NCBI GenBank assembly: GCA_041650335.1
Contig: JBAZLK010000002.1
Location: 124,070 to 188,069, forward strand
Length of the DNA stretch: 64,000 bases
From: Patescibacteria group bacterium
GTDB lineage: Bacteria; Patescibacteriota; Patescibacteriia; JAHIZJ01
Direction: 5' to 3'
In this document: positions 5,227 through 61,478 of the stretch, one piece after another
Layout: the number at the start of each line of letters is the position of its first letter
How positions within the stretch are numbered: position 1 is the stretch's first letter
The notes under the pieces: generated by a model
What the model was told of the DNA's origin: nothing
Seen by the model: the letters and a program-made list of their open reading frames with translations, nothing else
Databases searched by the model: none
Position numbers and translations under genes: made by a program

Positions 5227-5260
5227 AAATAGTCCCGTTCGATTAGATACTATTATAGCA

Positions 5261-5290
5261 TTGACGCGTCACCTTCCTCATGCGTATAAT
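5261..5290 (+). promoter_or_regulatory. sigma70-like promoter upstream of tRNA-Gly
   Basis: TTGACG (5261-5266), 18-nt spacer, TATAAT (5285-5290). Confidence 0.45.
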
Positions 5291-5432
5291 AAGGAAAGTA
5301 GGGACATCTTAAGTAAAACGTTTCTGGAAGTATTTGTCAAACGGGCGGGCGTCGTTTCCGGCAGAGCCGGACCCGGCTTTGCCGGGCAGTTGGTAGAGTG
5401 CCTGCTTTCTTGGTCCTCGGCGGCAGTTGCCG

Positions 5433-21449: not shown

Positions 21450-22020
21450 TAGCGTCTCAAGAAGACCGATAAGCCGAATTCTGTCTCCGCACCACTCGCT
21501 CCGTTCCACTATCGCTCGGGTGCAGAGCAAGCCCTGTATTGAAATTGGGGGCTTGCTCTGTGCCCAAACATAGCGAAGCGAAGTGAGTGGTACAGAGGAT
21601 GATCATCTCTCTAGGCCCGAGTGTTGCCACTGGGCTCAAGCGACCTACCCGTCCGGTCGACTGACCGGACCTATTCGGTCTTGCACCTGGCAGGGTTTTT
21701 CCCGTCCGATCATTACTGACCGGACCTGTGGGCTCTTGCTTTCACCCGCCGAAGCGGGCTATCCCACGCGAAGGTGGGCCCACTCTTTTCACCCTTACTA
21801 ACAGAGGCACCAAGTTTATGCCTCCATTAGCGGTATTGTTTCTGTGACACTCTCCCTGGCTTACGCGCGCCTCAAAAGTCTATAGTGCTCTTCAGACCAC
21901 GCGTTTCCGCCTCCATTTCGAAGGTGCCAACTTACCCGGCCGCATGACCGGGTGGTGTTCGGACTTTCCTCCCTCAGGCATTTATTTGCCTGACGGCGAT
22001 CATCTGGTCTTCTCAAGACT
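21450..22020 (-). ncRNA. rnpB: RNase P RNA (bacterial type, unusually long)
   Basis: Minus sense shows the conserved P4/J regions: GGAGGAAAGTCCGAAC, AGGTCGCTTGAGCCCAGTGGCAACACTCGGGCCTAGA, GTAAGGGTGAAA, and 3' ACAGAATTCGGCTTATCGGTC. P1 pairs 5' AGTCTTGAGAAGACC with 3' GGTCTTCTTGAGAC. About 570 nt, owing to extra hairpins including two related GTCCGGTCAGT...CCGGACGGG elements. Confidence 0.8.
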
Positions 22021-45800: not shown

Positions 45801-48572
45801 TTATTCTACCGGCAGAGTAAATATAAACGTGCTCCCCTTGCCCAAACCTTCGCTCTCGACCCAGATCTGTCCGCCGTGGGCGTCGACGATGCGCTTGGCA
45901 ATATAGAGACCGAGACCGGACCCGTCCGGCTGGACTTGGGCGATGCCCTCCCCGCGGACAAACTTCGTGAACAGCCGCTTGGCGTCATCCGGCGGGATAC
46001 CGCGGCCCGTGTCCTTCACGGAAACGCTGATATTGCCGTTGATCTTCTGAACCGAAACCGTGACGCTGCCCTGCGGTGTGTATTTTATCGCGTTATCGAC
46101 GAGATTCAAAATGACGTCTTTCAATTTATCCGAATCAACCATCAGGGCGGGCAGTTTTTTGGCCGGCTTTTTGTATTCCAGCTTGAGGCCTTTTTCCTCA
46201 GCCACCTTGATGATTTCGATCAATTCGGTCTGGATCAGTTCTTCGATTTGCGCCGGTTTCTTATCGAGTACGAATTTACCCGCCTCGATCTTCGTAATAT
46301 TGAGGAATAAATTTACCATCCGGACCATGCGCTTGCTCGCATCCAGCACTTGTTTCAAAATATTCAGTTTTTCTTCGTCAATCTTTCCGAAATCGCCGTC
46401 CACCAGCATGGACAGCCAGCCCTGGATGCCGGTCAGCGGGGTGCGCAATTGGTGCGAGGCGATGGAGATAAACTCGTTCTTCGCCTCGTCGAGCTGTTTC
46501 AAATGATCGTTCGCCTTGGCCAGCTCGGTATTCGTCAGCCGTAGCTCCTCGACCAACTTCAGATTCCTAGTGACAATACCCATCTGATCGGCCAGCGACT
46601 CCATCATCTGGATCTCGTCCTCAGATACTTCTTTCTTGGATTTTTGGATGACAAACACGATCGATCCGATGATCTCCTTTTCCGAGAAAATCGGCGCGGC
46701 CACGATCGTCTTCGCGCCCACGAGCTTTTGCATAGCATAGCAGATCGGCTTTGGAATCGGCGGGGACAGGAAATCAGATAGCGATTCGCTGATCTGGATA
46801 TTTCCCGTGCGGATTGCCTCCGTCGCCAGATCCTTATCCGCCATCGTGCCGCTGTATTGTTCGAGCTGTTTGGGCAGGAGTTTGACCGCGGCTTGAGTGA
46901 TTTTTGTCATCGTGATGGCCACCGGATGCGTTTTTTCACCTTCTCCGCGTAAAATAATAACCCCCCCGATGTACCCCAGCTCATTGGCGATGCCGTCAAC
47001 GATCGCCTGGGTAACCTTCTTGAAGTCGAGCGACCGAGTGATGATATTGCCGATACTCTGGAGAGCGTTCAAGTAGACATTCCGGTTCTTTAGCTCCACG
47101 TTGGCCATCTGAAGATCGGCCGTGGCGTGCTCGACCTCAACCTTCAGCTTTTCACTGAATGATTTTACCTCGTCATAGAGCCGCGACTTCTCGATCGCCG
47201 ACCCCATGAGCGGGCTCAAGACTTCGAGCAGTTTCAGGTCGTTTCCGCTATAGACATCGCCGGATCGCTTCTGGCCCAGCACATAGAGGCCAGTCACCTC
47301 GCCCTCGAGCATGATCGGCGCGATCACTGCCGCGCCCGTGGCTTTTACCTCAGCTAGTGATTTCTCGAGCTGTTTGCGCTCGCGTTCATCGGCCGTATCG
47401 GAGATTTTTCGCTCAAGCTCTTCGAGGACAACCACTTTTTCGGTTTTTTGAACGTATTTGGCGACCGAGCCATTCGCATCGACGCGCGTATTATTACCGT
47501 TACCGTTGTTATTTCTACGCTTGCTGTATGACTGTTTGTTTTTCGTGAGCAATAATATGTCCGCATATTTGATTTTCAGAATACTGGCGAGCTTCCACTC
47601 CACTGACGACAGCAGATCATCGAGCTCGATCTTCACACTGACCATTTCGGTCAGTATCTGGGTGGCTTCGGTATAGTCCACCTCGCCTTTGAAGAATATT
47701 GCATCGGTAATTTTTGCCAGTAAACGCTTCAACGGATCAAAACCGAAAACTATTACAAGCGAGACAAGGATAGTCGCGAGAAACCCCGACCCGCCAAGCT
47801 CTTGGATAAAAAGACCGGTCAGAAACGTAGCTGAAGTGAAAGCAAACGTAGTAAAAAGAATGAGAAAGAAATAGATAATGGAGCGAGATATAACCACCCT
47901 AATATCAAACAATCTGTGTTTGACGATTGCATAGGCGGTAATAATCGCATAAATGAAAACAAAATAATTACCAACAGGATAAATATTTAATCTAAAATCT
48001 AGTAAAAAATTTGTAGATCCACCAACAAATCCAATCAATGACGCGACAAACATGTATAATAACTGTTGTGATCTGAGACCAAGAGCTTTTTTATATTCAA
48101 TATATATATTTCTGATACTCCAAAAAACGACTGCAACAAAATATATAAGAAATGTTGGGTATATGCTTCCAGTTTTTACCGGCCAATAGCCAAAATATGT
48201 CCTGGGACTCACTTGCTCGATAAACAATTTAGAAAAAACGAGAATCGAAAATATTACCGAAATGACATACAAAAAAATAGTAATATACAAGTATTTCTTT
48301 TTTGTCCTGCCGGTTAATACAACGCTATAACGAAAAAATACGGCGGGTAATAACGCAGTACCAATATACAACAACCTTTGCCAAATCAATGCCTGATCAG
48401 AGTTATTAGCAATGACGGTACCGAATAAACCTATAGTCCATATTGAAGTTACACAACTGACAAGAAACCATATTTGATTTAATTCTTTCTTCCTATTTCC
48501 AAATAAAACAAACAGTCCTAGTGCAACAGTTAATATCGCGGTTAAAAGACAGGTATACGCAAAAGTGTTCAT
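45801..48572 (-). CDS. sensor histidine kinase with N-terminal 7TM sensor module and GAF domains
   Basis: 923 aa. The first ~300 aa are multi-TM. H-box FISIASHQLRTPLTGIQGWLSML, N/G boxes (NLVDNAIKYT, DTGRGI, GSGLGLYI). Confidence 0.8.
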   Translation of the reverse strand: MNTFAYTCLLTAILTVALGLFVLFGNRKKELNQIWFLVSCVTSIWTIGLFGTVIANNSDQALIWQRLLYIGTALLPAVFFRYSVVLTGRTKKKYLYITIFLYVISVIFSILVFSKLFIEQVSPRTYFGYWPVKTGSIYPTFLIYFVAVVFWSIRNIYIEYKKALGLRSQQLLYMFVASLIGFVGGSTNFLLDFRLNIYPVGNYFVFIYAIITAYAIVKHRLFDIRVVISRSIIYFFLILFTTFAFTSATFLTGLFIQELGGSGFLATILVSLVIVFGFDPLKRLLAKITDAIFFKGEVDYTEATQILTEMVSVKIELDDLLSSVEWKLASILKIKYADILLLTKNKQSYSKRRNNNGNGNNTRVDANGSVAKYVQKTEKVVVLEELERKISDTADERERKQLEKSLAEVKATGAAVIAPIMLEGEVTGLYVLGQKRSGDVYSGNDLKLLEVLSPLMGSAIEKSRLYDEVKSFSEKLKVEVEHATADLQMANVELKNRNVYLNALQSIGNIITRSLDFKKVTQAIVDGIANELGYIGGVIILRGEGEKTHPVAITMTKITQAAVKLLPKQLEQYSGTMADKDLATEAIRTGNIQISESLSDFLSPPIPKPICYAMQKLVGAKTIVAAPIFSEKEIIGSIVFVIQKSKKEVSEDEIQMMESLADQMGIVTRNLKLVEELRLTNTELAKANDHLKQLDEAKNEFISIASHQLRTPLTGIQGWLSMLVDGDFGKIDEEKLNILKQVLDASKRMVRMVNLFLNITKIEAGKFVLDKKPAQIEELIQTELIEIIKVAEEKGLKLEYKKPAKKLPALMVDSDKLKDVILNLVDNAIKYTPQGSVTVSVQKINGNISVSVKDTGRGIPPDDAKRLFTKFVRGEGIAQVQPDGSGLGLYIAKRIVDAHGGQIWVESEGLGKGSTFIFTLPVE

Positions 48573-49216
48573 TGTATTGTATTCTGTTTTTCCACTAAAT
48601 TGACAATCTTTTTGGCTATTTGTCGTTTTCCTTTAATAAAAATGATATTATTGGCATGGTCTAATATAAATGCCTCGTGAACCCCTCTAACTCTTTTATA
48701 TTCGTTTGCCACCATGAAATCGGCGCGTGACTCCGCCATACTTTTGGACGCGATCTGAATTAATTGTTTTGATGTTTTGTTTACTTCCAACTTGAACTTA
48801 ACAAGAATGGTACTGGGGGTAATTTTTTTAATATAATTTACTATTTTTTTTGTTGGCTTCAGTTTCAAAAATATCGTTTTCTTGCCACTTTTTATTTTCC
48901 CACTATATTTTTTTGATAACTGATAATCGGATATTGCGGCGGAATGAAATATTGCGTCGTATTTATTTTCTTTAATTTCTTTAATGAATATCCGAAACAA
49001 TTCATCATAATAGTGAAATTTTATTAATCTAACTTTAATAGATCTAAGTTTATGATCACAAACTCTTCCTGGTCCTAACATCAGTGTAACCTTGTGTCCT
49101 CTTCTGCTAGCGATTTTTGCTATTTCAAAACCAAGATTACCTGCAAAAACATTCGTAATTACTCTTACTTTATCGATGGGAACCCAAACTGGACCGGCGG
49201 TCACTAATACTCTCAT
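48569..49216 (-). CDS. coaB: phosphopantothenate--cysteine ligase-like (CoaB domain)
   Basis: MRVLVTAGPVWVPIDKVRVITNVFAGNLGFEIAKIASRRGHKVTL matches the CoaB pattern VLVTSGGT.EPID.VRFI.N.SSG. Confidence 0.55.
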   Translation of the reverse strand: MRVLVTAGPVWVPIDKVRVITNVFAGNLGFEIAKIASRRGHKVTLMLGPGRVCDHKLRSIKVRLIKFHYYDELFRIFIKEIKENKYDAIFHSAAISDYQLSKKYSGKIKSGKKTIFLKLKPTKKIVNYIKKITPSTILVKFKLEVNKTSKQLIQIASKSMAESRADFMVANEYKRVRGVHEAFILDHANNIIFIKGKRQIAKKIVNLVEKQNTIQ

Positions 49217-50012
49217 TTTTTACTATATAATTATTTTTTACTTTTTTATACCATTTCCATGGAGTCCTAAACAAATTGTATTTTACGTATAGTGATAAAT
49301 GATTTTGTTTAAACCATTTGATAAACTCTTTATCAATATCTTCTCTACTTCTTATTTGATGTCCCCTTTTCCTGAGAAAATCGATATAGATATTACCTAT
49401 TGGAAAGATAAAATGTTTAGTAATATATCTCGGTTTTTTCTCTAGTTGATAATCAATATTATCCAAAGGCTCACTCATGCTAATAATGTGCTTTTCATTT
49501 ATTGGATGCACTGCATCATGTTCCCCATCCCATATAATCAAATCTGTGAGATTATCAATATGTTTTGTCTTCAATGAAAGTTCTGTATCCGTTGATGGGT
49601 CGCATTTTATCCAGCGATTATCTATATATACAAAGCAAACTATATGCACCGATGAACTACTAATACTTTCCTTGATAAAAGAAGGAAGAATATGCCCAAA
49701 AGATTCCCCGCCAATTACCTTATATATACAATATCCGCTCGGTATACCTGCAGCTCTAAAAAGCGCAACAAGTAAATTTGTACTAGTGGTACACATGCCC
49801 GTCTGACTCTCCATAGTTTCAGAAGCTCTCTTACTCCATGCGCCAACCCTGTATTTAATATTATCCCTTACATATTCAAAAAGTGCTATCGCAAGATCCT
49901 TATCATTCTGATTGACCTTTTTATAACTTTTAACAAAATCTATAATATTGTGATTATCATAATCACAATATTTTGTAACAGCTAAATACTTTTGCTTATT
50001 TATTTTTTCCAT
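49170..50012 (-). CDS. transglutaminase-like cysteine protease superfamily protein
   Basis: Core GMCTTSTNLLVALFRAAGIPSGY (catalytic Cys), then His/Asp region (SFGHIL...VYIDNRWIKCDPS). Overlaps coaB by 47 nt and coaC by 13 nt. Confidence 0.55.
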   Translation of the reverse strand: MEKINKQKYLAVTKYCDYDNHNIIDFVKSYKKVNQNDKDLAIALFEYVRDNIKYRVGAWSKRASETMESQTGMCTTSTNLLVALFRAAGIPSGYCIYKVIGGESFGHILPSFIKESISSSSVHIVCFVYIDNRWIKCDPSTDTELSLKTKHIDNLTDLIIWDGEHDAVHPINEKHIISMSEPLDNIDYQLEKKPRYITKHFIFPIGNIYIDFLRKRGHQIRSREDIDKEFIKWFKQNHLSLYVKYNLFRTPWKWYKKVKNNYIVKNESISDRRSSLGSHR

Positions 50013-50578
50013 TGCTTTAATAATTTTTCGATGTTATTTTGAAGGACATCATTTCCAATTAGCGCTCCTTCACCCTCATAACCGCATGCTAATTTTCCTT
50101 TGATCGGTCCAACGATGCTATATTTATCCAAGTTGCCTATTTTAATATTTCTCAATTTGCTAATATTTGACTGGATTATTTCATTTTCCCACATATGACA
50201 ATTCATAGCGGGCGCAATAAGTACTGGCGTTTTTTTCGGGAGTGCGCACATTACTGTTGTAAGTAAATTATCAGCTATTCCACATGATAATTTACTTATT
50301 GTATTTGCAGTCGCCGGTGCTAATACAAAAATGTCGCACCAATCAGCTAAATGTATGTGCTCAACAACGGTTTTATCGTGCGTTTCAAAGGTATCTAAAT
50401 ATACTTGCGAATTAGACAATGTCTGTATAGTTACCAGTGAAATCAATTGCGTGGCAGCCGCCGACATAATAACTTTAACAGTTGCCCCTGAAGCCTTTAG
50501 TCTATTTATTAAACTACACATTCTATAAGCACCAATACATCCAGTAATTCCTAATAATATCTTTTTGTTCTTTAACAT
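50000..50578 (-). CDS. coaC: phosphopantothenoylcysteine decarboxylase-like flavoprotein (CoaC domain)
   Basis: KKILLGITGCIGAYRMCSLINRLKASGATVKVIMS... and PAMNCHMWEN match the HFCD flavoprotein family. Confidence 0.6.
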   Translation of the reverse strand: MLKNKKILLGITGCIGAYRMCSLINRLKASGATVKVIMSAAATQLISLVTIQTLSNSQVYLDTFETHDKTVVEHIHLADWCDIFVLAPATANTISKLSCGIADNLLTTVMCALPKKTPVLIAPAMNCHMWENEIIQSNISKLRNIKIGNLDKYSIVGPIKGKLACGYEGEGALIGNDVLQNNIEKLLKQWKK

Positions 50579-50640
50579 ACCATTTAATTAAATTATTATA
50601 TATTAAAATTCTTTATAAAACATATAGGACAAAGATCCAA

Positions 50641-51324
50641 CTACTTCTTCAATACTATCACTGCAATCATAACCGCCACGACACCGGCAAATAGCGGAGA
50701 ATATGCCATGTTAATTGATAAATCAAAAAGGGGGAAGATGCGATCCATAACCACGCCAACTAAACCGCTAATACCAATTATTATAGTAACGGCGGTTACC
50801 TGTTTTTTTAGTTGCACCGAGACAATGTTTATTTTTTTTATTAACAAATATAGTGATAACAACAAATATATCAACGATACTATGAAGAGCGCCCAGAACG
50901 CATTACCTGGTTTAATATCGATAAATCCTTCATTTACATTAACATCATTAATGAAGCTTGGCTGTAATATTATTGCTGGCAAGACAATAAATATTGATCC
51001 AAATATTACCAATCGGCGAACAAGAGGATCCATATTTGTCGGCAACGGATAATACATTGCCAATGCAAGGAGACTTACGAAACTGGCCGTACCAGAGTAG
51101 AATGCTGCCCTGGCAATAATCAACTTTGACATTTCTGTATTCGAAGTCATGAGAAGTCCAACAAAGAAGGACATTAGTGAAAAACCAAAAAGCATAGCGC
51201 AGAGCGCATAGATAGACTGAGTTTTTTGATATCGAAAATAAATATACAATGCGAGAATCAATTCTAATATGGAAAGAGACCAAAGAATTATTGTATTTGC
51301 TTCAGTAATGATACTCATTTTCAT
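50641..51324 (-). CDS. hypothetical polytopic membrane protein
   Basis: 227 aa, about 6-7 TM, AT-rich. Confidence 0.45.
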   Translation of the reverse strand: MKMSIITEANTIILWSLSILELILALYIYFRYQKTQSIYALCAMLFGFSLMSFFVGLLMTSNTEMSKLIIARAAFYSGTASFVSLLALAMYYPLPTNMDPLVRRLVIFGSIFIVLPAIILQPSFINDVNVNEGFIDIKPGNAFWALFIVSLIYLLLSLYLLIKKINIVSVQLKKQVTAVTIIIGISGLVGVVMDRIFPLFDLSINMAYSPLFAGVVAVMIAVIVLKK

Positions 51325-51642
51325 ACCGCTTTTTTCTTAAATAGAATAGGTGTAAGAAACTTAATTGTTACCGATTCACAAAAAGCATATAAAAAAGCCA
51401 GCGCAAAAAGCAAGCCAGCTTCAATAAGTAAAATGTAGTTTTGTATCTGCATCCTTGTCTACTATGAAAAATTAGGATTCCAGTCGGATGCCTTTTAGTT
51501 ACAGAGATATTATACAAAAATCTGCGGAAAAGTCAAATCTGAAATAATTACACTAAATATGACACGATGCACATAAAAATGTGCGATAAATGGTCTATTT
51601 GTGTGAATATATCGAAGTACTCACTTTTGTTACATTTCGTTG

Positions 51643-51996
51643 TCATCCTGAACTTGCTTCAGGATCTCCATACCACTTTTCCGCTAGGTCAATATAATTT
51701 GGATTCTGCTTTTGAATCAAATTCATTTTCCACACCCGATGCCAATTCTTCAATTGTTTTTCTCTCGTGATAGCCGCACAGATGTCATCGGTTTCTTCAT
51801 AATACAATAATTTGGTCAGATTATATCTCGCACTGAAACCCCTAACTAAATGATTCTTGTGTTCATACATCCTCCGTATTAAATCATTAGTCACACCGAT
51901 GTAAAGCGTTGTGTAGAGAGTGTTGGATATAATATAGACATAATAGGTTTTCATAAATTCTATGTTGATTATGAGATGCTGAAACAAGTTCAGCAT
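51643..51996 (-). CDS. GIY-YIG nuclease family protein
   Basis: YYVYIISNTLYTTLYIGVTNDLIRRMYEHKN is a canonical GIY-(10-11)-YIG plus Arg/Glu region. 117 aa. Confidence 0.7.
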   Translation of the reverse strand: MLNLFQHLIINIEFMKTYYVYIISNTLYTTLYIGVTNDLIRRMYEHKNHLVRGFSARYNLTKLLYYEETDDICAAITREKQLKNWHRVWKMNLIQKQNPNYIDLAEKWYGDPEASSG

Positions 51997-52048
51997 GACA
52001 ATAAAATAAAAAACAGGGTTTATGTCTCCCTGCTTTCTTTTATCTTTT

Positions 52049-53509
52049 TTAAACTTTTACCCCAATCCGCTCAAGCGCGTTTTTATAAAGTATCACATTT
52101 TCTAATGCATAGGCCGCCTCCTGCGCGACATTCTGTAAATATCTGACGTCTTCTGTTGTATACGGTTCGTTCGATGTCTTACTGCCAAGAAGAACAAGCG
52201 CAGAAAGTCCGTGGCGCGTAGCTAGCGGCAATACCGCTTCGGTTTTCAGATTGTCCATTTCCTTTTCGCACTGCTCGAGCCGTCGCTGTTCAAGACCGAA
52301 TGCTTCCTGAAATAGATACGGGATTTCTTCACGGATTAGCATTTTCATGGAATCTTTCAAAAAACTCGGTAATGCTTCTTCTGCGCGAATACTGATATTG
52401 CCGTCTAATGAGTCATATGTTCCCTGGCGCTTGTTTACTATTAAACAAGTTATTCGATTCACGTTCACAACCTTTAATATTTCACCCGATAGCTCTCGGC
52501 AAAACTCTTCCAAGTCCACTAAACCGATCACGCGCTGCCGAACATCTTCAATCATCTGTTTCATATTCGGCTGGCGCGAAAAAAACAAACGGTTAATTAT
52601 TCGTATCAACCATTTACGAAATGGGATAAAGGTTACGGCAATAACAAGCACTGAAGCAAAATTCACAAATGCACGGTTGAATGCGTACTTCTGGACTAAA
52701 TAATCATTCGCAAGCAGAACTAAATAACCATAGACGATTAGTAATAATATAAGAACCAGCGTATGGGCCGCGCCCTTTTTCATTACTATCCTTACGTCCA
52801 TAAAACGATACCGTAGTATGGCATACGCAATAAGCCACGTAAACACAGCTAAACCAATCAAACTTAGAGGATATAATTTATTGTAACCAAGCGATGGCAG
52901 TAGTAAATTAAATAGTAAAGAAAATGTCGCAACGCAAATAAACGCAAAGATAATATAACGTAGTTGAATCTTTGTAACTTTTGATGTAGTTGATTTGAAA
53001 ATATTGAATAATTTTTTCAATCCAAAAAATGCATATATTAATAAATAAATAATATATGCAGGATACAATTGACTAATACTCGGACGATAACCGTAATTTT
53101 CAATATATTCGACATCAGAGATGTTATACCTTGTCGGAACTATTGCTACAATGGCTATGGATGGTAAAAAAAGTAGCAAAATTTGCCACCACGAAAATGG
53201 CGTCTTTTTTTTATAGAGAGTATACGCAAAAAGTAAAAATAATGTCGGGGAAAACGCCGGTCCGAGAAAAGTCAGTCTCGCCCATAAAAGAGCGGCTTCT
53301 TTGCCACCAACAAGATCGGACATAATGTTCGCAAACAACCACACAGAGAGACTTAGCACTAACGATCCAAAGAAGATCAGATTTGGTCTTTTTTTGCTCT
53401 TAATAAATACGGTAATGGATATTACCAGGAGCGCAAAAAAACAAATTACTGAGGTAACTTCAATAATTTGGATCTCTAGACTATGATATATTCCAGGATT
53501 AATCTCCAT
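52049..53509 (-). CDS. membrane sensor with N-terminal 7TM module and C-terminal GAF-like domain (no kinase domain)
   Basis: The first ~300 aa are multi-TM and resemble the N-terminus of the 45801..48572 kinase. The C-terminus is GAF-like (ALVLLGSKTSNEPYTTEDVRYLQNVAQEAAYALENVILY). Confidence 0.5.
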   Translation of the reverse strand: MEINPGIYHSLEIQIIEVTSVICFFALLVISITVFIKSKKRPNLIFFGSLVLSLSVWLFANIMSDLVGGKEAALLWARLTFLGPAFSPTLFLLFAYTLYKKKTPFSWWQILLLFLPSIAIVAIVPTRYNISDVEYIENYGYRPSISQLYPAYIIYLLIYAFFGLKKLFNIFKSTTSKVTKIQLRYIIFAFICVATFSLLFNLLLPSLGYNKLYPLSLIGLAVFTWLIAYAILRYRFMDVRIVMKKGAAHTLVLILLLIVYGYLVLLANDYLVQKYAFNRAFVNFASVLVIAVTFIPFRKWLIRIINRLFFSRQPNMKQMIEDVRQRVIGLVDLEEFCRELSGEILKVVNVNRITCLIVNKRQGTYDSLDGNISIRAEEALPSFLKDSMKMLIREEIPYLFQEAFGLEQRRLEQCEKEMDNLKTEAVLPLATRHGLSALVLLGSKTSNEPYTTEDVRYLQNVAQEAAYALENVILYKNALERIGVKV

Positions 53510-54172: not shown

Positions 54173-54736
54173 TTAGATGCCATATATTGCCCTGATGCCG
54201 GAAATATCATCCGAATGCAACGTGCGCTTATATGTCTCACCGGGTGCCCCGCTTCCATACATTGTTTTCCAATAATCTCCGCCGCTGTACAGATCATTGA
54301 GCATAAGCCAGTGTCCAAATTCATGCGCCATGACATTTTCAACGTCATATTTGTTCGGGTCCCCGTTCACGTCCCAAGAAAAGCGCGAGTTTATGTATGT
54401 ATCACGATCAGTGATGCGATTATTGTTCCATCCTTCTCGCACATACGTTATGGCAAGTGCATGTGGGTCAGACAAATACTGGAGACGCACTTCATGCCCT
54501 TGCGAGCCAGCAATAAACCGATACTTTGCGCCCGCCTGATTCCACGATGACATAGCGTGGGATATGGCCGGTACCCAGGCGGGCAGGATACTACTGTGCA
54601 TGTAGACCGATACCCGGGTCGGATTGCCATAGTCCCAGTGATGGCCGGAATTGTAGTAGGCTTGGGCGTTAGGCGCACTAATGCCGGCCATAGCCGCAAC
54701 AAAGAACGCGACTAATGCTAAAAACTTTTTTCTCAT
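54173..54736 (-). CDS. secreted zinc metalloprotease (HExxH)
   Basis: Start at MRKKFLALVAFFVAAMAGISAPNAQA (signal peptide). Motif VMAHEFGHWLMLND. Confidence 0.55.
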   Translation of the reverse strand: MRKKFLALVAFFVAAMAGISAPNAQAYYNSGHHWDYGNPTRVSVYMHSSILPAWVPAISHAMSSWNQAGAKYRFIAGSQGHEVRLQYLSDPHALAITYVREGWNNNRITDRDTYINSRFSWDVNGDPNKYDVENVMAHEFGHWLMLNDLYSGGDYWKTMYGSGAPGETYKRTLHSDDISGIRAIYGI

Positions 54737-54806
54737 CTTGTACCCTTTTCCACCCGTCATATTAATTATAGCTATGTCAATGGATAATTGGAAATAAAGC
54801 AAAAAA

Positions 54807-54882
54807 CGAGCCCGAAAGCCCGTCTCTTTCTAACACTAGAATACTCTCTACGTATATTATGTCAACTACCTGTTATCCACCC
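54807..54882 (-). repeat. conserved promoter element, copy D (upstream of secreted metalloprotease gene)
   Basis: rc GGGTGGATAAcaggtagTTGACA-16 nt-TATTCT-agtgtt-AGAAAGAGACGGGCTTTCGGGCTCG. Confidence 0.65.
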
Positions 54883-55520
54883 GCCCCCGCAACTTGATAT
54901 AATGCTTCCAACTCTACTTTTGTCCACCGGATACCGTACACAGCTCGAAATATTCGTGGAAATATTTCGGGTGAATTTGTCTGGCCAAGCTTTCGCAGCA
55001 ACGTAAGCATTTTTTTCTCGCCGTATTTCCGGATCAGCGCGTTGACCCAGAAATACCCGACCGGATATGCCATGACAGAGAAGTTACCCATGGGTCTTGT
55101 TACTGAGAGCGCCAGCGCCAATGGCGGCGTGCGTTTTTTCTGACCAGCCAACCAGCAAGCCAAGCCTTCGTTCAGCCATTTCGGCACATTCCAACCCGCA
55201 ACACTGCGGATGTACAGATGCGCGTGTTCGTGGCGCAGGGTGGTCCAGAATTCAGATCGGCGCCTATGGTTTGACTCGCTGACGTATTTTTCCGGGCTCA
55301 GAATATAAATTACCCGTTCTCTCGTCCAGCCGACTGACCAATCCTCAGTTTTTCTTCCCCAAAGAGCGTCGATCTGACGTCGCGAGGTGAGAAGAACGAC
55401 CAACGGTTCAGAAAGCTTGTATCCGAAGAAACGGTCAAGTTCTTTCGTTTGCATTTTTATCTGGCGTCGCAGTTTCGGCAGTTGGCGAACCCGACTTATT
55501 TCCACACATAGGTTTTTCAT
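54873..55520 (-). CDS. hypothetical protein with HExxH motif (putative metal-dependent hydrolase)
   Basis: TTLRHEHAHLYIRS; 215 aa. Confidence 0.35.
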   Translation of the reverse strand: MKNLCVEISRVRQLPKLRRQIKMQTKELDRFFGYKLSEPLVVLLTSRRQIDALWGRKTEDWSVGWTRERVIYILSPEKYVSESNHRRRSEFWTTLRHEHAHLYIRSVAGWNVPKWLNEGLACWLAGQKKRTPPLALALSVTRPMGNFSVMAYPVGYFWVNALIRKYGEKKMLTLLRKLGQTNSPEIFPRIFRAVYGIRWTKVELEALYQVAGAGG

Positions 55521-56445: not shown

Positions 56446-56865
56446 TCATGATCTTAAATGTTTTATTACGGTTCTCTTGTATCCACTCTCCATCTTAAGC
56501 ATCCTTACTCCAGCTGCAGTCACCCAACGCCATTTGTCATGTTCCTCACTCAGATAGAATCGGCTCTTCGATATCCGGCATTCAAAAACCACAACGCAAA
56601 AATGATACCTGGCAATATCATGGAATTTCGTCATGATATTAAACACTGATATTGGTCGGCCAATTTCTACCCGGGTAATTCCAAGTTCCTCTTTTAATTC
56701 TCGGCACAGGACCGCCTGCGGCGTTTCTCCAAATTCCATCTTTCCTCCGGGCAATTCCCAGGAACCGCCGGGCGTATGTACAAATAATACTTTATTATCG
56801 CGTAGGATCAACGCTTTTATTGTAATGCGTAATCGCCGTTCCATTTTTGGATAGTAACCCTTCAT
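56446..56865 (-). CDS. NUDIX hydrolase
   Basis: Nudix box GGKMEFGETPQAVLCRELKEELGI. Confidence 0.6.
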   Translation of the reverse strand: MKGYYPKMERRLRITIKALILRDNKVLFVHTPGGSWELPGGKMEFGETPQAVLCRELKEELGITRVEIGRPISVFNIMTKFHDIARYHFCVVVFECRISKSRFYLSEEHDKWRWVTAAGVRMLKMESGYKRTVIKHLRS

Positions 56866-57437
56866 AACTTTTTATTATTCAATTTATCAATAAACATTGC
56901 GAATGTATTTTCTTTAAGAGAAATATGACGGCCGTACCATCGTTCCACTAATCCACTGAATTCTATTATTCGAGTAAACCCGGAATTTCGGTCGTGGTTT
57001 ATCTGCTTTCGATACCACGACTTACCTTCTGTCTCGCTGATATGAATAGCATTTAAACAACGGACAAAGTATTCCTCAAGATTGTCACGGAATGTTTGCC
57101 CTCGATAGTTATCGGGAAGTCCAATTTCACATTCCTGGACAAAATGACTGACCGACATTTTTGTCTTTATCAGTGAATGCAGGGCTTCGTGTCGCACGGT
57201 ATTCCAGGGGAAGCTATGATCTGGGTGGGGATGTAAACGAATAATATGTTTTACTCCGTCATGTGATACTCGACCGTTCCCCAAGGGCAGATGCTCGTCA
57301 ATTTTTATTTCCAAAATCAACGAACAATCATCTTCGTTCCACCGTAATAGGTCAACTGCCTCAAGGACGGTTGATCTGCACTTCTCCATAAACCCATCTA
57401 TTTTCGATAATTTTTTGGCTAGTTTAATATCGATCAT
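56862..57437 (-). CDS. hypothetical HExxH protein (putative metallopeptidase) downstream of the radical SAM gene
   Basis: RHEALHSLI motif; 191 aa; AT-rich compared with the flanking rSAM gene. Confidence 0.4.
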   Translation of the reverse strand: MIDIKLAKKLSKIDGFMEKCRSTVLEAVDLLRWNEDDCSLILEIKIDEHLPLGNGRVSHDGVKHIIRLHPHPDHSFPWNTVRHEALHSLIKTKMSVSHFVQECEIGLPDNYRGQTFRDNLEEYFVRCLNAIHISETEGKSWYRKQINHDRNSGFTRIIEFSGLVERWYGRHISLKENTFAMFIDKLNNKKL

Positions 57438-57516
57438 TATTTTCTAGATTACGCCACAAGGTGCAAAAAGTAAAATCCCTTCGATCTCGGCATCAAAGGG
57501 GTATAGCAACATCCAG

Positions 57517-58785
57517 TCACTTGATTGGCTCCGGTGGAAGACCGAGCTCCATCCGGAGAATTGCCCGAGTGAAAAAGCGTATCCCCTCACAACGGTGGCT
57601 AACCCGCCTAGCGAAACCAGCCCCGTACGCCGACGCTCGCACATGGCAACAGTCGCCTTTGCAATTGCTCATGGCATAACAGTCATGACATTGGGGCACC
57701 GAATCCGCTGTATAGCCGGCCAATTGTTGATACGATTTCCCGGATATTTCGGGACCCGTGCCATGGGGCGTTATTTTGCCATAATGGAAGCATGCCGCTA
57801 GCGGATCGCGGGAATCGCTGACTCGCGTACAGGCCGTTACGTTGCCCTCCGGATCGATGCCGAAGATTCTGCCGTTGACCCCGCAGAAGCTGAGCCGGCA
57901 TACGTGCGACTTGAAGGTTGCCAATGAGGAACGCAGCTGCAAGTTATTTGCTTTCGCAATCGCCAGCAAGCCTACATACTGCTGAGCAAACACTCGAAGA
58001 TCCGGCGGTTGCGCATTGGTGTCGATGCACCTTCCGGTATACTCCAGCGGCTCGATGCCGATGACCACATTCGGCCAGCGACGGTGCAAAAACAGCACAT
58101 TGTCTTCGAGATCGTTGACGCTCTCTGCCGAAACAGTCATCCGAAAGCCTATACCGATGGTACCAACACCACTTAGCGCGTCGATGTTGGCCGCCACGAT
58201 ATTGAACGACGGTCGTCCGTCGGCCAGCGGCCTCTGTTTGTTCTGTATCATCGGAGGTCCGTCGATTGAGATCGAGATGTTCGTGAAGTTGTCAACGATG
58301 AAGCGCCGAAGCTTGGAGGAAAAGCAGCCGTTGCTGACAATGGCGAGTTTGCACCGGAGCCCCGTTTCGGACTCCTTCTGCCTGCAGTAGGCCACGATTT
58401 TACGCACCAGCCTCAAAGACAACAGCGGTTCCCCGCCGCCGGTCAGCGTAACGTCGAAGTGTGATAGCCCCAACTCTTTCGCATCTTTGGCCACCTGGTC
58501 GATAGCCTGGCAGGCTATGGGAAATGGCATTTCCCGTCGCTGTTGCGTACCGGAATTCGCGTGGCAGTAAATGCAGCGCAAATTACAGAAGTTGTTGAGC
58601 ACCAGATCACAACGGGGAAACCTCCCGTCCGGCGCGCGTTCAGTGGAATGCGTCTCAACTGTTGCGTCAAACAGGTCGGGTACTTGGATGCTCTGCGGAA
58701 CAAGCCGGACCGTGCGAAGCTGGGGAATGTACACGATCTTGTTCCCGCTTTCAACCGGAATCTGAAAAGCGCGAACCGCAGTCAT
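57517..58785 (-). CDS. radical SAM / SPASM-domain peptide-modifying enzyme
   Basis: CNLRCIYCH (CxxxCxxC). C-terminal Cys cluster CHDCYAMSNCKGDCCH fits the SPASM Cx2Cx5Cx3C pattern, plus additional upstream Cys. GGAGG SD. Confidence 0.8.
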   Translation of the reverse strand: MTAVRAFQIPVESGNKIVYIPQLRTVRLVPQSIQVPDLFDATVETHSTERAPDGRFPRCDLVLNNFCNLRCIYCHANSGTQQRREMPFPIACQAIDQVAKDAKELGLSHFDVTLTGGGEPLLSLRLVRKIVAYCRQKESETGLRCKLAIVSNGCFSSKLRRFIVDNFTNISISIDGPPMIQNKQRPLADGRPSFNIVAANIDALSGVGTIGIGFRMTVSAESVNDLEDNVLFLHRRWPNVVIGIEPLEYTGRCIDTNAQPPDLRVFAQQYVGLLAIAKANNLQLRSSLATFKSHVCRLSFCGVNGRIFGIDPEGNVTACTRVSDSRDPLAACFHYGKITPHGTGPEISGKSYQQLAGYTADSVPQCHDCYAMSNCKGDCCHVRASAYGAGFARRVSHRCEGIRFFTRAILRMELGLPPEPIK

Positions 58786-58812
58786 TGGTCACCTCCTGAG
58801 AAAGGATTGAGT

Positions 58813-58836
58813 GGGGCCGGCGGTGAAACCGGCCCC
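58813..58836 (-). promoter_or_regulatory. intergenic hairpin between precursor peptide and radical SAM gene (putative attenuator/partial terminator)
   Basis: GGGGCCGGcggtgaaaCCGGCCCC, perfect 8-bp GC stem, 30 nt after the peptide stop. Confidence 0.5.
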
Positions 58837-58853
58837 CTACCGCGTTGACTCGA

Positions 58854-59018
58854 TCAGTCGCTCGAGCAGATGTAGTCGTCGCAGCAGTTGTCGCAGCAGG
58901 CTTGCCCGTTCTGCGAATATTGCCGATCGCTCAGCGTTGCTTCTCGCACGCTGACCTGATCCAGCTCCGACAGCGTCGCAATTGAACGGGTTTCCGTGCC
59001 ATGGCTCGACGCATTCAT
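58854..59018 (-). CDS. candidate RiPP precursor peptide (54 aa, Cys/Asp-rich C-terminus), absent from the ORF track
   Basis: MNASSHGTETRSIATLSELDQVSVREATLSDRQYSQNGQACCDNCCDDYICSSD. SD GGAGAGGAGGG lies 8 nt before ATG. Directly upstream of the rSAM/SPASM gene. Confidence 0.55.
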   Translation of the reverse strand: MNASSHGTETRSIATLSELDQVSVREATLSDRQYSQNGQACCDNCCDDYICSSD

Positions 59019-59178
59019 TTAGCTACCCTCCTCTCCGCCCATAGGAGTCAGGTTGATTAGCCAGAGGTTCCGGCATTCGGAATGTGGCAAAACCGCCAGA
59101 GACCGATGGGTCTTTTGTTGTAAAAGATCGATAACACAAAAAGAGCCGGTTTTTCTGCCTGCCTTCGGAAGGCAAGAA

Positions 59179-59247
59179 AGAAAGCCCGTCTCTTTCTGCC
59201 TGCATGATACACCATCTAGAGAACCGGTCAAGATCGTTTTATCCACT
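59179..59247 (-). repeat. conserved promoter element, copy E (upstream of the precursor peptide)
   Basis: rc GTGGATAAaacgatcTTGACC-16 nt-TATCAT-gcaggc-AGAAAGAGACGGGCTTTC. Confidence 0.65.
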
Positions 59248-59346
59248 CAGCTAGATATAAATTAGATAATTGCCTGTTCGTTTGAAATAAAAATGACCGA
59301 ACGGGAGGTCCGGTCAAGAAGTAGCTCGGTTGCCAGCAATGTACAT

Positions 59347-60513
59347 TTAGGGTGGGCCGATGATGGCGAGCTCCCGTTCCAGCTCGCAGTCAAAACTCCA
59401 GGGAGAGTAGGTCGAATGAACCAGGTTGTTCGTGGCAGAGATAGCGTACCGCCGGCGCGCTTCCTTCTTCCAGCAGAGCGCGCGATAGTATCCGCCCCGG
59501 CCGGCGACCAGCACCGCGAGCGATTCGCCGCGTGCCAGCAATGCGACCGCTTCTTCGTACCAGTCATCAGCGCGCGATGCCTGGTACCACGTCTGCGCTT
59601 CGGCCTGAGTAAACCGGTGCGGCCAGGTCCGGACGATGTTCAACCCGTACCGATTAAGCAGTTTGAGCAATTCGGCTTCAAGTCCCCGGCGGCGCGCTTC
59701 CGGCTTCAGCAGTATGAGCGAGCGCTCGATGCGGTCCGGCTGGAGCGAGCCTTTTGGGCACAGCGTCAGCCAGCGGTAATAGCCCGGTTCATTGATGAAC
59801 GTGCGGCTCAGCGTGAGATCGCCGGGCGTATTGATGTTGCAGCACAGGTCGTCGCCGACCAGGCCCAGGATCCGGAAGTTCCGCATTAGCAGCAGCCGAA
59901 CCAGGTAGTCCCAGCCGAGCGAATAGGCCTGAAACTGATAGTTCTGCCAGTTACGAAAATCCTCTACCCAGCCACCGCTCAACCGCTCGAGGCTGGATGT
60001 CCGGAACGCCCACAGCACCAGGAGCGTCGGTATCTCGTGCCCTGGCACTTCTTCAAGTTCACACACCCAGCCGTTTTCAACCCGGTACCGCCAGTAGATC
60101 CAGTCAGAGGTGATGAACGGCCGGCAGACCGTGGTGATGAGCACGGCGCCATCCGCCGAGGACTCCTGTTCCAGCGCCTGAAGCAAGCGGTCAGCGCTGG
60201 CTGGATGCCAGAGCGTATCCCCGTTCACTCCGACAATGATGTCAGGCTGATATTGCCGGGCGGCGTTGAAGAAACAGGTCGTCAGCGGTTCGACACACCC
60301 GGCCGCGACGTTGACGCGTCCGGCGGTATGCTCGATCAGCGCCTCCTTCCCGTCGTCGACACCCATTACGATCGAATTGAAACCGGTCGTCAGGCCAGCC
60401 TCGATTATCCGATCAATAATCGGCCGCCCCTCAACTTCAACCAGCGATTTCGGCCCGGCACATCCGAGTCGGCGTCCCTGGCCGCCGGCGGCGATGAAGA
60501 GTTGCGTTTTCAT
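59347..60513 (-). CDS. fusion protein: N-terminal sugar-phosphate nucleotidyltransferase-like domain plus C-terminal nucleoside-diphosphate-kinase-like domain
   Basis: N-terminus AAGGQGRRLGCAGPKSLV (NTP-transferase G-x-G-x-R-x-n-K). C-terminus RSLILLKPEARRRGLEAELLKLLNRYGLNIV ... NNLVHSTYS resembles the NDK motifs (IKPD..., N.IHGSDS). Confidence 0.5.
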   Translation of the reverse strand: MKTQLFIAAGGQGRRLGCAGPKSLVEVEGRPIIDRIIEAGLTTGFNSIVMGVDDGKEALIEHTAGRVNVAAGCVEPLTTCFFNAARQYQPDIIVGVNGDTLWHPASADRLLQALEQESSADGAVLITTVCRPFITSDWIYWRYRVENGWVCELEEVPGHEIPTLLVLWAFRTSSLERLSGGWVEDFRNWQNYQFQAYSLGWDYLVRLLLMRNFRILGLVGDDLCCNINTPGDLTLSRTFINEPGYYRWLTLCPKGSLQPDRIERSLILLKPEARRRGLEAELLKLLNRYGLNIVRTWPHRFTQAEAQTWYQASRADDWYEEAVALLARGESLAVLVAGRGGYYRALCWKKEARRRYAISATNNLVHSTYSPWSFDCELERELAIIGPP

Positions 60514-61478
60514 ACACCGATCTCCTTCTCATGCCAGCGCCAGAAAGGTTCTGAGACGCGGTAGCCGCCTTTGGCGAACGAAAGCCGCAGTTTGGCGAAC
60601 CATGGCCCATCTAGACTAATCCCGAGATCGACCAGCTGACCCCCGCTTTCCTGGGTATCGGCCCGGCCTTCAATGAGGTCAGCCGCCGCGGAACAGCCGT
60701 GGCGAGCCAGGTACTCCAGCACAAACAGGTAGTACTGCGGAACTTGCCGATGGCCCAAGAAACGATAGGCATCGATGAGACGCAGCTCGTGTTCGGACAG
60801 CGGGCGTTTCGCCCGGTAGCCGTCAAGAAAGTACTGGAGACCGTCGAAATAATGGCGGTAACTCCAGCCGCCGTCCGTGACTAACAGGATCATGAAGGAC
60901 AGCGAGGCGCCGATGTCATAGACCGGCCAGCATACGCCGGAGTGCTCCCAGTCATAGGTGATCATCGGCTCGGCACTGAACAAGTTCTGGATTGTGTAAT
61001 CGCCGTGGATATAGACCGGCGCCAGACCATTCAAAGCAAGCCGGGCAGCCGACATGGTAGCGGCGGCTGCAGCCAGGGCCCCTTCGGGCAGATTGCTGCG
61101 CCGCAAGACATCCGTCTGCAGATCCTGAAACCGGCGGTTAATGAGCGCCGCGGTCGGCTCGCCATCGCACGTAAGGCCATGGATGTCGGCCAGCGTAGAT
61201 CCAATCGCCTGGAACGCCGACGGCTGCGGATTGCCCCACAACACCTGGTCAACGCGCGGGGCATAGATGCGCTCCATCACTGTCCAGCCGCCCCAGCGCC
61301 CGATGCCAGACTTCAGCACCCGCGGCGTACAGATACCTCCGTTCCCGGCCAAGGTAAGACCGCGCATTTCCGCCGCGTGCCGTTCCGGCCACATCCCCTT
61401 TTTCGTGAAGGTCGTTTCCGTCTGCTCATACTCTTTGCGCATTCCACCCAGCTTCAAATAAGCGTCCATAACAAACAC
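60510..61478 (-). CDS. aminoglycoside-phosphotransferase/choline-kinase-like small-molecule kinase
   Basis: YIHGDYTIQNL (Brenner HGD..N catalytic loop) and DWEHSG (D-x-E). Confidence 0.6.
   Translation of the reverse strand: MFVMDAYLKLGGMRKEYEQTETTFTKKGMWPERHAAEMRGLTLAGNGGICTPRVLKSGIGRWGGWTVMERIYAPRVDQVLWGNPQPSAFQAIGSTLADIHGLTCDGEPTAALINRRFQDLQTDVLRRSNLPEGALAAAAATMSAARLALNGLAPVYIHGDYTIQNLFSAEPMITYDWEHSGVCWPVYDIGASLSFMILLVTDGGWSYRHYFDGLQYFLDGYRAKRPLSEHELRLIDAYRFLGHRQVPQYYLFVLEYLARHGCSAAADLIEGRADTQESGGQLVDLGISLDGPWFAKLRLSFAKGGYRVSEPFWRWHEKEIGV

Follow-up and report, generated by a model that had tools for sequence, protein, structure and literature searches.

PapB is a radical SAM (rSAM)/SPASM enzyme from Firmicutes, encoded beside the short precursor PapA (freyrasin), and it makes thioethers from the sulfur of Cys to the beta carbon of Asp. 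QhpD, the thioether maturase of quinohemoprotein amine dehydrogenase (QHNDH), makes Cys-Asp and Cys-Glu thioethers on an enzyme subunit within the QHNDH operon. The CteB/CteA system (SCIFF, thermocellin) combines a Cys-rich precursor with a maturase of three-cluster rSAM-SPASM architecture, for which structures are available (PDB 5WGG/5WHY). In ChlB/ChlH and the TIGR04267 pairs or fusions, an rSAM/SPASM enzyme works in a RiPP cluster with an HExxH partner. These aKG-HExxH enzymes fold like zincins and for a long time were wrongly annotated as peptidases; they are often partners of rSAM enzymes, and their targets in RiPPs are Asp, His, Gln, Phe and Pro (PMC12636437, PMC13060819); Asp is a known target of those hydroxylases that are paired with rSAM-SPASM enzymes (PMC12636437). 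The Patescibacteria (candidate phyla radiation) have tiny genomes in which few or no biosynthetic gene clusters are usually reported (PMC11613949, PMC8692599).

Here, we describe a patescibacterial locus that shares features with all of these systems. In the window (the whole stretch of 64,000 nucleotides that was analysed) three minus-strand genes for a peptide, an rSAM enzyme and an HExxH protein lie in a row, as the earlier note had reported, and translation returned the motifs at their positions. The three proteins are NCBI MFA5107195-7.1, encoded on a 368-kb contig and labelled 'MAG: ... Patescibacteria group bacterium', which fits the earlier guess of a streamlined, host-associated genome. 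The order peptide, rSAM, HExxH recurs in 11 further distinct metagenomic loci, giving 12 loci with the window. On balance we favour the reading that the genes form a self-contained RiPP cassette, with a ranthipeptide-type thioether product and leader cleavage by the HExxH protein. They probably define a new, rare, Patescibacteria-centred and ranthipeptide-like family of rSAM RiPPs, for which Cys-Asp thioether chemistry would be expected. The features are the following:

59294..59316, minus strand: intrinsic-terminator-like hairpin with a T-run, at the end of the upstream NTP-transferase/NDK gene
59204..59231, minus strand: promoter-like site TTGACC-16-TATCAT of the precursor operon (10/12 matches)
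59134..59201, minus strand: long hairpin and trailing U-run in the 5' mRNA leader of the precursor gene
58854..59018, minus strand: precursor peptide gene, 54 aa (NCBI annotation: hypothetical protein)
58813..58836, minus strand: GC-rich hairpin GGGGCCGG-N-CCGGCCCC, after the stop codon of the precursor gene and before the ribosome binding site (RBS) of the rSAM gene
57517..58785, minus strand: radical SAM/SPASM peptide maturase, 422 aa
57477..57500, minus strand: terminator-like hairpin and T-rich tail in the 79 nt that separate the rSAM gene from the HExxH gene
56862..57437, minus strand: HExxH zincin-fold protein, 191 aa
56446..56865, minus strand: NUDIX hydrolase gene, its start codon overlapping the stop of the HExxH gene (ATGA), co-transcribed here
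45801..48572, minus strand: 7TM-GAF-HisKA-HATPase histidine kinase, a recurrent neighbour of the cassette

The 54-aa peptide has the Cys/Asp-dense C-terminus that had been described for it and reads ...QACCDNCCDDYICSSD at this end. Residues 1-40 (58899..59018) make up the leader, in which L19, L29, P32 and G38 are conserved, and residues 41-54, CCDNCCDDYICSSD (58857..58898), the core. The pattern CCDxCCDDY[IV]C is invariant across the loci (C41, C42, D43, C45, C46, D47, D48, Y49 and C51), and the five Cys of the core are matched by five candidate acceptors, namely D43, N/Q44, D47, D48 and D/E54. This Cys-containing precursor adjoins the gene of its rSAM/SPASM maturase, as the definition of the ranthipeptide class asks. 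Like PapA, the core pairs Cys with Asp. However, the likeness to freyrasin-type CxxxD peptides suggested earlier does not extend to the spacing, since the repeated CX3D of PapA is missing and vicinal CC pairs are followed by D, N/Q or DD. Compared with the NCBIfam precursor models, the six-Cys-in-45 model of SCIFF included, the peptide gave no match at E <= 0.01, in which it also differs from CteA. Its invariant Tyr may hint at cross-links of another type.

The maturase contains the motifs CNLRCIYC (C67/C71/C74; CX3CX2C at 58564..58587) and CHDCYAMSNCKGDCCH. C67-x3-C71-x2-C74 is invariant in 20 homologues, and a score of 45.5 bits with PF04055 (cut-off 29.5) places the protein in the radical SAM superfamily. 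The SPASM region with its 7 Cys covers residues 301-399 (57589..57885), where the motif is complete and invariant throughout (C301-x12-G314-x4-C319, C366xxC369x5C375x3C379, C399). TIGR04085 recognizes it as SPASM with 31.1 bits (cut-off 27), and the Pfam SPASM model (PF13186) lies just under its threshold with 18.5 versus 21.5. The CxxxCxxC motif and the SPASM-type auxiliary cluster of the initial proposal are hence both borne out. The best HMM matches are PapB (NF047865, 1.3e-36, 317/330 profile positions covered), nif11-rSAM, QhpD (TIGR03906, 1.4e-26, nearly full-length over residues 61-411) and the SCIFF maturase (TIGR03974, 2e-23). The nearest relatives are therefore RiPP thioether maturases, as had been supposed, and not anaerobic sulfatase maturases (anSME), which match with 1e-16. 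None of the curated family cut-offs is reached. PapB as the best-scoring family stays at 126.5 bits against an equivalog cut-off of 340, QhpD at 93 against 453, SCIFF at 83.4 against 425 and the anaerobic sulfatase maturase TIGR03942 at 60.6 against 349, the latter over the rSAM core only (residues 65-205). Assignments as anSME, QhpD or a mycofactocin/PQQ-type cofactor maturase were rejected because these scores are low or partial and the partner genes are absent; a search of the flanks of the cassette found no sulfatase, QHNDH or mycofactocin genes.

The arrangement of an rSAM/SPASM gene beside a short precursor is the same as for PapB/PapA. In contrast to PapB, the enzyme described here carries a 60-residue N-terminal extension that is all-beta, has a dedicated HExxH partner and occurs in Patescibacteria. 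Among solved structures, CteB comes closest in sequence (E = 7e-16) as well as in fold (E = 1.5e-18, TM 0.72-0.74), and the enzyme shares its three-cluster architecture. The two differ at the N-terminus. In CteB about 100 residues form an RRE there and the rSAM core begins at residue 102, whereas the core begins at residue 62 here. Residues 1-45 (58651..58785) are predicted in the AF2 model as five beta-strands with no helix (pLDDT about 90), and residues 1-60 matched none of the family models. With an all-beta model and no family match, a canonical PqqD-like RRE of three strands and three helices was rejected, and the peptide-binding domain sought in the enzyme by the earlier note is not there in its canonical form.

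We propose that the 54-aa precursor is transcribed from its own promoter and that its leader of about 40 residues would dock on the rSAM/SPASM enzyme. Because a canonical RRE is absent, docking would probably occur by beta-strand pairing with the small all-beta N-terminal domain. SAM-derived 5'-deoxyadenosyl radicals and the two auxiliary Fe-S clusters would then introduce cross-links at the invariant Cys of CCDxCCDDY[IV]C, most likely to side-chain carbons of adjacent Asp or Asn/Gln. The product would contain thioethers of the ranthipeptide type, S-C(beta/gamma), with as many as five cross-links within 14 residues. It seems unlikely that the same cassette yields a sactipeptide, in which the rSAM enzyme links the Cys sulfur to C-alpha (sactionine links). 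The two classes are closely related in their CteB-like and SPASM enzymes, and regiochemistry is not predictable from sequence alone; the sactisynthases RumMC (4.9e-13) and StsB (3.7e-12) match weakly, and SkfB is listed in the fold search. The ranthipeptide-type and Cys-Asp/Glu thioether enzymes nevertheless match better by 10 to 20 orders of magnitude, and a core rich in Asp, Asn and Gln acceptors resembles the PapA and QhpC substrates.

The third gene of the cassette is constant as well. The 191-aa HExxH protein, picked out before by its sequence RHEALHSL, has a zincin peptidase-like fold with H83-E84-x-x-H87 at 57177..57191 and the invariant E121-E122 at 57072..57077 on the next helix. The invariant H83, E84 and H87 together with N119-x-E121-E122 make up the gluzincin pattern, a metal site assigned from sequence and secondary structure. 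The AF2 model (pLDDT 91) has the putative Zn metallopeptidase 4l7a as its top Foldseek match, and distant members of the family pass the Pfam DUF4932 cut-off. The HExxH helix, the Glu on the following helix and the thermolysin-like fold are those of gluzincins (MA clan), and from the model we can confidently predict a minimal gluzincin fold that is closest to the catalytic domains of M1 aminopeptidases. Unlike M1 enzymes, the protein is a minimal stand-alone domain of 190 aa and lacks the GxMEN exopeptidase motif. The family itself is matched by none of the Pfam or NCBIfam models, and a search of PDB sequences with its profile gave no match at E <= 10. Four basic residues are invariant (R82, K91, R117 and R126) and would suit an acidic core. 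In the mechanism that we propose, this gluzincin-like protein would most likely cut off the leader after modification, near the junction of the conserved G-x-[AGC] with CC.

The HExxH protein could instead be an aKG/Fe tailoring oxygenase that hydroxylates Asp in the core, which we regard as rather unlikely. The aKG/Fe HExxH beta-hydroxylases of the ChlB/ChlH, PflC, BpmH and PesO type occur together with rSAM/SPASM enzymes or as fusions to them, their fold and their Asp targets are as described above, and the core is rich in Asp. Membership in TIGR04267/IPR026337 was rejected, however, as 0/17 family members match TIGR04267 at E <= 10, while PflC as positive control scores 98.5 bits with TIGR04267.2. 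In hhalign, the family profile and PflC align with a probability of 0.4%. With about 190 aa versus about 340 aa the protein is half as large as aKG-HExxH domains, and the invariant Glu-Glu after the active-site helix is that of gluzincins. NiFe hydrogenase and PFOR genes neighbour the distant relative L018, and from these genes and the affiliation with Patescibacteria we infer anaerobic hosts, which makes an O2-dependent enzyme less likely.

Chemistry of another kind, that is a C-C or C-S link at the invariant Tyr or another modification of Cys, with a metal-binding peptide as product, appears improbable. Such a product would be a metallophore or chaperone and not a thioether knot. Y49 is indeed invariant and the D-Y-x-C submotif is found again in the distant L018 precursors, yet in L016, a deeper relative, the Tyr is located elsewhere in the core and Cys and acidic residues persist. 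Likewise, cyclophane maturases match the enzyme (YhhB 4e-13, FxsB 4e-10, AmcB 5e-10) and ChlB is its third-best structural neighbour, but the scores of the cyclophane families are far lower than those of the thioether families, and the canonical aromatic-X-X repeats of cyclophane substrates are missing. By its HMM matches, the enzyme is nearer to the thioether-forming maturases than to the cyclophane-forming ones. Cores dense in Cys and Asp typically act as metal ligands, and the lack of a conserved exporter would also agree with a metal-binding role; neither an exporter nor an immunity gene conserved with the cassette was found among the loci.

Whether the small ORF is conserved with the rSAM gene in relatives had been set beforehand as a point on which the proposal could fail, and the ORF always adjoins the rSAM gene. 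Six loci (L009-L014) were retrieved only by the back-translated DNA pattern of the core, one of them on the same contig as L003, and in all six the genes for the rSAM enzyme and the HExxH protein follow directly downstream. The core is under purifying selection. Codon changes per pair amount to 0-3 non-synonymous versus 1-8 synonymous, so that almost only synonymous sites differ, whereas the leader diverges freely between loci. Recurrence of the cassette and conservation of the core are far beyond chance. The idea of a chance ORF next to an unrelated housekeeping SPASM enzyme (a sulfatase or cofactor maturase), to which the weak matches of the anSME and MftC models might point, can be taken as effectively refuted by the codon pattern of the core and its conservation in 12 loci. 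The restriction of the anSME match and the absent partner genes described above also speak against it. The same logic is seen further out. L016 has a Cys/Glu/Asp-rich core, an rSAM enzyme with 40% identity and a relative of the HExxH protein, and rSAM relatives at 33-34% identity adjoin other Cys-rich small genes, one of which ends in CDDYDCSSD. NUDIX, methyltransferase and Peptidase_MA_2 genes were considered as core members and rejected, each recurring in 2-3 loci only.

The cassette is rare. The core pattern matches 3/185,579 species genomes, and the HExxH family comprises 17 protein clusters among 5.8 billion and 27 representatives among 1.84 billion proteins. While rSAM RiPP systems are a known type, this family, the missing peptide-binding domain and the small metalloenzyme partner have not been described before; our literature search found nothing specific on the cassette family, on Patescibacteria/CPR with ranthipeptides or on the core motif string. 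A cassette that is strictly conserved and strongly selected in several Patescibacteria implies that its product is worth the cost to an episymbiont. Signalling, interaction with the host, competition and metal handling are possible roles of this product. To enzymologists, the locus offers a compact rSAM/SPASM maturase without canonical RRE, a vicinal-Cys substrate with an extreme density of possible cross-links and a very small new zincin family, with a role as leader peptidase or another one.

Relatives of the histidine kinase are located beside the cassette in L002, L008, L005, L009, L003 and L001. The 7TM-GAF-HisKA-HATPase kinase is a possible regulator or sensor of the cassette, and we do not claim it as a member. 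Quite unlikely, and speculative at this stage, is a bolder reading in which a 14-residue, hyper-cross-linked Cys/Asp knot is made by a route unlike that of known ranthipeptides, with an RRE-less maturase and an obligatory minimal zincin not described before, and acts as a signal or weapon tied to this kinase. Such a product would be extracellular, made by episymbiotic Patescibacteria, and the kinase would be tied to its production or perception. If true, members of the candidate phyla radiation would use peptides for signalling.

Several signals frame the genes. The hairpin and T-run at 59294..59316 mark the upstream limit of the cassette. Both promoter hexamers, TTGACC and TATCAT, are kept in L008 and L001 where the flanks have diverged, and the precursor gene has a strong RBS, GGAGAGGAGGG, 8 nt 5' of the ATG. 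The hairpin at 59134..59201 (-32.8 kcal/mol, z = -3.9; 0/200 shuffles fold equally well) is possibly an attenuator. In L008 its outer stem is retained and the inner hairpin is swapped for another (z = -2.4), and in L001 the hairpin is absent, so that support comes from two sequences. Between precursor and rSAM gene, the hairpin at 58813..58836 has a clear 9-bp GC stem without U-tract, within an 81-nt segment that as a whole is not unusual versus shuffles (z = -1.2); it could set the transcript ratio of precursor to enzyme or stabilise the transcript. The NUDIX gene adjoins the cassette also in L008 (upstream) and L011 (downstream) and is absent at the other loci. Against a single unit, the HExxH gene is set apart from the rSAM gene by a terminator-like hairpin and by an offset in GC that is constant. 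The terminator-like sequence at 57477..57500 is also readable in L008, and its position matches the drop in GC from 56% in the rSAM and peptide genes to 40% in the HExxH gene. A recent splice or horizontal-transfer junction at this step was rejected, since in 10/10 loci measured the GC content of the rSAM gene exceeds that of the HExxH gene, whatever the GC content of the host.

Three minus-strand open reading frames, which the earlier note had claimed for this part of the DNA, were found at exactly the coordinates it gave, and translation reconfirmed both these coordinates and the presence of the motifs it had quoted. All three products come, at NCBI, from a "Patescibacteria group bacterium" MAG (368-kb contig). 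The genes of this cassette and its transcription signals are the following.

58854..59018, minus strand: precursor peptide gene, 54 aa, MNASSHGTETRSIATLSELDQVSVREATLSDRQYSQNGQACCDNCCDDYICSSD (NCBI MFA5107197.1, hypothetical)
57517..58785, minus strand: radical SAM/SPASM (rSAM) gene, 422 aa (NCBI MFA5107196.1, radical SAM protein)
56862..57437, minus strand: HExxH gene, 191 aa (NCBI MFA5107195.1, hypothetical)
59316..59294, minus strand: terminator-like hairpin ending the upstream NTP-transferase/NDK fusion gene
59231..59204, minus strand: promoter-like site, TTGACC-16-TATCAT
59134..59201, minus strand: stable hairpin and U-run in the 5' leader of the precursor mRNA (z = -3.9)

Both promoter hexamers are kept in two related loci in which the flanking DNA has diverged. 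Because of this site and the terminator-like hairpin upstream of it, the cassette looks like a transcription unit of its own. The peptide gene is preceded by a strong Shine-Dalgarno sequence and followed, immediately 5' of the rSAM ribosome-binding site, by a GC hairpin of 9 bp that has no U-tract. A terminator-like hairpin between the rSAM and HExxH genes is kept in L008, one of the related loci (given L numbers) on other contigs. The 5'-leader hairpin lies just 3' of the conserved promoter; its counterpart in L008 (about 5240..5305) keeps the outer stem and has an inner hairpin of other sequence, and it is not present in L001. Judged from two sequences, the hairpin and U-run may form a transcription attenuator.

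A search of 5.8 billion protein clusters yielded just 28 relatives of the rSAM, 11 of them with at least 49% identity. On the contig of each of the closest ones, a small ORF ending CCD[NQ]CCDDY[IV]C... is followed by the rSAM gene and then by the gene for a roughly 190-aa protein carrying FPWNT[VI]RHExxH. As an independent test, the back-translated core, i.e. the Cys/Asp-rich C-terminus of the precursor (TGYTGYGAYNNNTGYTGYGAYGAYTAYRTNTGY), was searched in genome and metagenome collections. The pattern matched three times among 185,579 species genomes and as often in JGI metagenome contigs, and the rSAM and HExxH genes lay immediately 3' of every match. Counting the window, the same small ORF stands ahead of the rSAM and HExxH genes in 12 loci, which bears out its proposed tie to the rSAM. 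The named hosts are Patescibacteria and Candidatus Uhrbacteria, and as far as names go the cassette is confined to Patescibacteria; one 11.5-kb contig is binned as Gammaproteobacteria. In the precursor alignment C41, C42, D43, C45, C46, D47, D48, Y49 and C51 of the core are invariant, while few leader positions are kept (L19, L29, P32, G38). The last 15 codons differ per pair by 1-8 synonymous and 0-3 non-synonymous changes, and the leader in more distant pairs by 16-23 non-synonymous ones. The alignment and this codon comparison both speak for translation of the small ORF and for selection on it.

The assignment of the second gene to the radical SAM enzymes with a SPASM domain holds. Pfam matches are Radical_SAM and Fer4_12, and the C-terminal 133 residues exceed the TIGR04085 SPASM cut-off (31.1 vs 27 bits). 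In 20 homologues C67, C71 and C74 are invariant, C253 is nearly so, and the full SPASM pattern is common to all (C301-x12-G314-x4-C319, C366-x2-C369-x5-C375-x3-C379, C399). The enzyme stays below the cut-off of each curated NCBIfam maturase family compared, namely the following and the sactisynthase (around 1e-12 to 1e-13) and cyclophane-former (around 1e-10 to 1e-13) models.

Matches of the rSAM to curated NCBIfam families
PapB ranthipeptide maturase: E 1.3e-36, 126 bits, cut-off 340
nif11-peptide maturase: E 4.8e-32, 111.3 bits, cut-off 518.7
QhpD: E 1.4e-26, 93.2 bits, cut-off 453
SCIFF maturase: E 1.6e-23, 83.4 bits, cut-off 425
anSME: E 1e-16, 60.6 bits, cut-off 349

The SCIFF maturase CteB is the nearest solved structure by sequence (E = 7e-16) and also the nearest fold to the confident AF2 model (pLDDT 89; Foldseek E = 1.5e-18, TM 0.72-0.74), followed by anSME and ChlB at 2e-12. 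Judged from its nearest relatives (PapB, QhpD, CteB) and from the make-up of the core, the enzyme would join the five core cysteines by intramolecular thioethers, most likely to beta or gamma carbons of D43, N/Q44, D47, D48 and D/E54. Alternatively, it may link Cys to C-alpha, making the product a sactipeptide, a less likely reading that the sactisynthase matches favour and the better PapB match speaks against. Other radical SAM chemistry at the invariant core Tyr, possibly giving a metal-binding product, is a further alternative. The enzyme departs clearly from CteB at its N-terminus: the rSAM core starts at residue 62, compared with about 102 there. Residues 1-45 are modelled as five beta-strands with no helices, and profile searches matched no family to the N-terminal segment. 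We therefore reject a canonical PqqD-like leader-binding domain (RRE); leader docking, if any, would be by strand addition to the small N-terminal sheet.

The HExxH protein has no Pfam or NCBIfam match. Its family is very small, with 17 clusters in a search of 5.8 billion proteins and 27 representatives in a full HMM search of 1.84 billion. Among the invariant residues are H59, R82, H83, E84, H87, K91, Y111, Q114, R117, N119, E121, E122, Y123 and R126. In the AF2 model (pLDDT 91.4) a four-stranded sheet is followed by the HExxH helix (residues 78-93) and a long helix (116-137) with N-x-E-E, and this predicted layout is the gluzincin arrangement. The best Foldseek match is 4l7a, a putative Zn metallopeptidase, and behind it come Wss1, YbeY, MMPs and thermolysin. 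Those family members that lay furthest out in the profile search exceed the threshold of Pfam DUF4932, which we take to be the family of 4l7a. Going by the model, the protein is a minimal gluzincin-like enzyme whose substrate and reaction we infer: once the rSAM has acted, it would cut off the leader close to the conserved junction G-x-[AGC]|CC, and it may recognise the acidic core through its four invariant basic residues. The rival reading is an oxygenase instead of a peptidase. ChlH, an aKG/Fe beta-hydroxylase, is the partner of a fused rSAM/SPASM enzyme. Enzymes of the aKG-HExxH type, once mistaken for peptidases, act on RiPPs by hydroxylating Asp and other residues (PMC12636437, PMC13060819). 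However, the positive control PflC (sequence from the supplement of PMC12636437) scored 98.5 bits against the aKG-HExxH beta-hydroxylase model TIGR04267.2, whereas none of 17 family members matched even at E <= 10, and hhalign of the family profile with PflC gave 0.4% probability. Thus, the protein is not a recognisable aKG-HExxH hydroxylase.

The combination of precursor, rSAM/SPASM enzyme and possible protease is already a known kind of architecture. The differences are that the window rSAM does not reach the curated membership threshold of PapB, nor the window system that of SCIFF, that the RRE is missing, and that the core motif is unlike CX3D repeats. The HExxH partner is an undescribed, obligatory family. 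Our literature search found no paper describing the cassette family, and the related loci share no conserved exporter or immunity gene. Near P0053, a distant HExxH relative of 312 aa, a 39-aa ORF ending NCCEEMGEACTDCCCDVGCQYT precedes an rSAM 40% identical to that of the window, so that the grouping of a Cys/acidic core with an rSAM and an HExxH protein is, by sequence, kept at greater evolutionary depth. Relatives of the rSAM at 33-34% identity have no HExxH partner at their loci and adjoin other Cys-rich small genes, such as a CGC-repeat peptide gene in a Hydrogenedentes genome. At L018, also without an HExxH partner, the C-terminal halves of two small gene products are extremely Cys/Asp/Tyr-rich with a recurring D-Y-x-C submotif, one ending ...CNCDDYDCSSD.

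L018 3435..3948, minus strand: tandem small genes (80 and 76 aa), divergent from an rSAM 34% identical to that of the window

In the window, GC3 is 0.39 for the HExxH gene and 0.66 for the rSAM gene. This step recurs throughout the family instead of marking a local splice, since the HExxH gene lies 4-16 GC points (4-26 in GC3) under the rSAM gene in all ten loci measured (window, L001-L005, L008, L009, L012, L014), among which host GC varied. Of about 9 loci whose flanks could be used, 7 have a 7TM(HisKA_7TM)-GAF-HisKA-HATPase histidine kinase or 7TM-only paralogues near the cassette, with position and strand varying from locus to locus. They may reflect a regulatory or sensing link, or mere synteny among related genomes. 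At L003 there is also a response regulator, oriented divergently to the peptide gene.

Window 45801..48572 (minus strand), also 50641..51324 and 52049..53509: 7TM-GAF histidine kinase and 7TM paralogues
L002 2547..5339, L008 1297..4113, L005 25..978: histidine kinase or 7TM relatives
L009 271..1281, L001 8419..9864, L003 11291..11389: further such relatives

Other neighbours are these.

59347..61478, minus strand: gene pair of high GC (about 61%), next to the cassette on its upstream side
48569..53509, minus strand: low-GC block (32-38%)
54173..55520 and 41529..44270, minus strand: further metalloprotease genes
L009 5781..6806: a second rSAM gene, distantly related (24% identity), 3' of the HExxH gene at a distance of about 1.2 kb
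21454..22015, minus strand: bacterial RNase P RNA (class A) match

The two overlapping genes of the high-GC pair, one for a MobA-like nucleotidyltransferase fused to a nucleoside-diphosphate-kinase domain (388 aa) and one for an APH-type phosphotransferase (322 aa), are not kept beside the cassette in other loci. In the low-GC block the CoaBC halves are encoded by two genes (Flavoprotein, DFP) that flank a transglutaminase-like gene; 7TM sensor-like proteins follow. Nearby are also an M10/snapalysin-like protein with an apparent (by eye) N-terminal hydrophobic signal-like segment, a 913-aa M23 peptidase with a Por_Secre_tail-like C-terminus, and a Peptidase_MA_2 protein of a kind that adjoins the cassette in L001 and L009 as well; on the latter, a Patescibacteria contig, the relative follows the second rSAM gene. 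The RNase P RNA carries large insertions, since its match spans 562 nt against a 367-position model.
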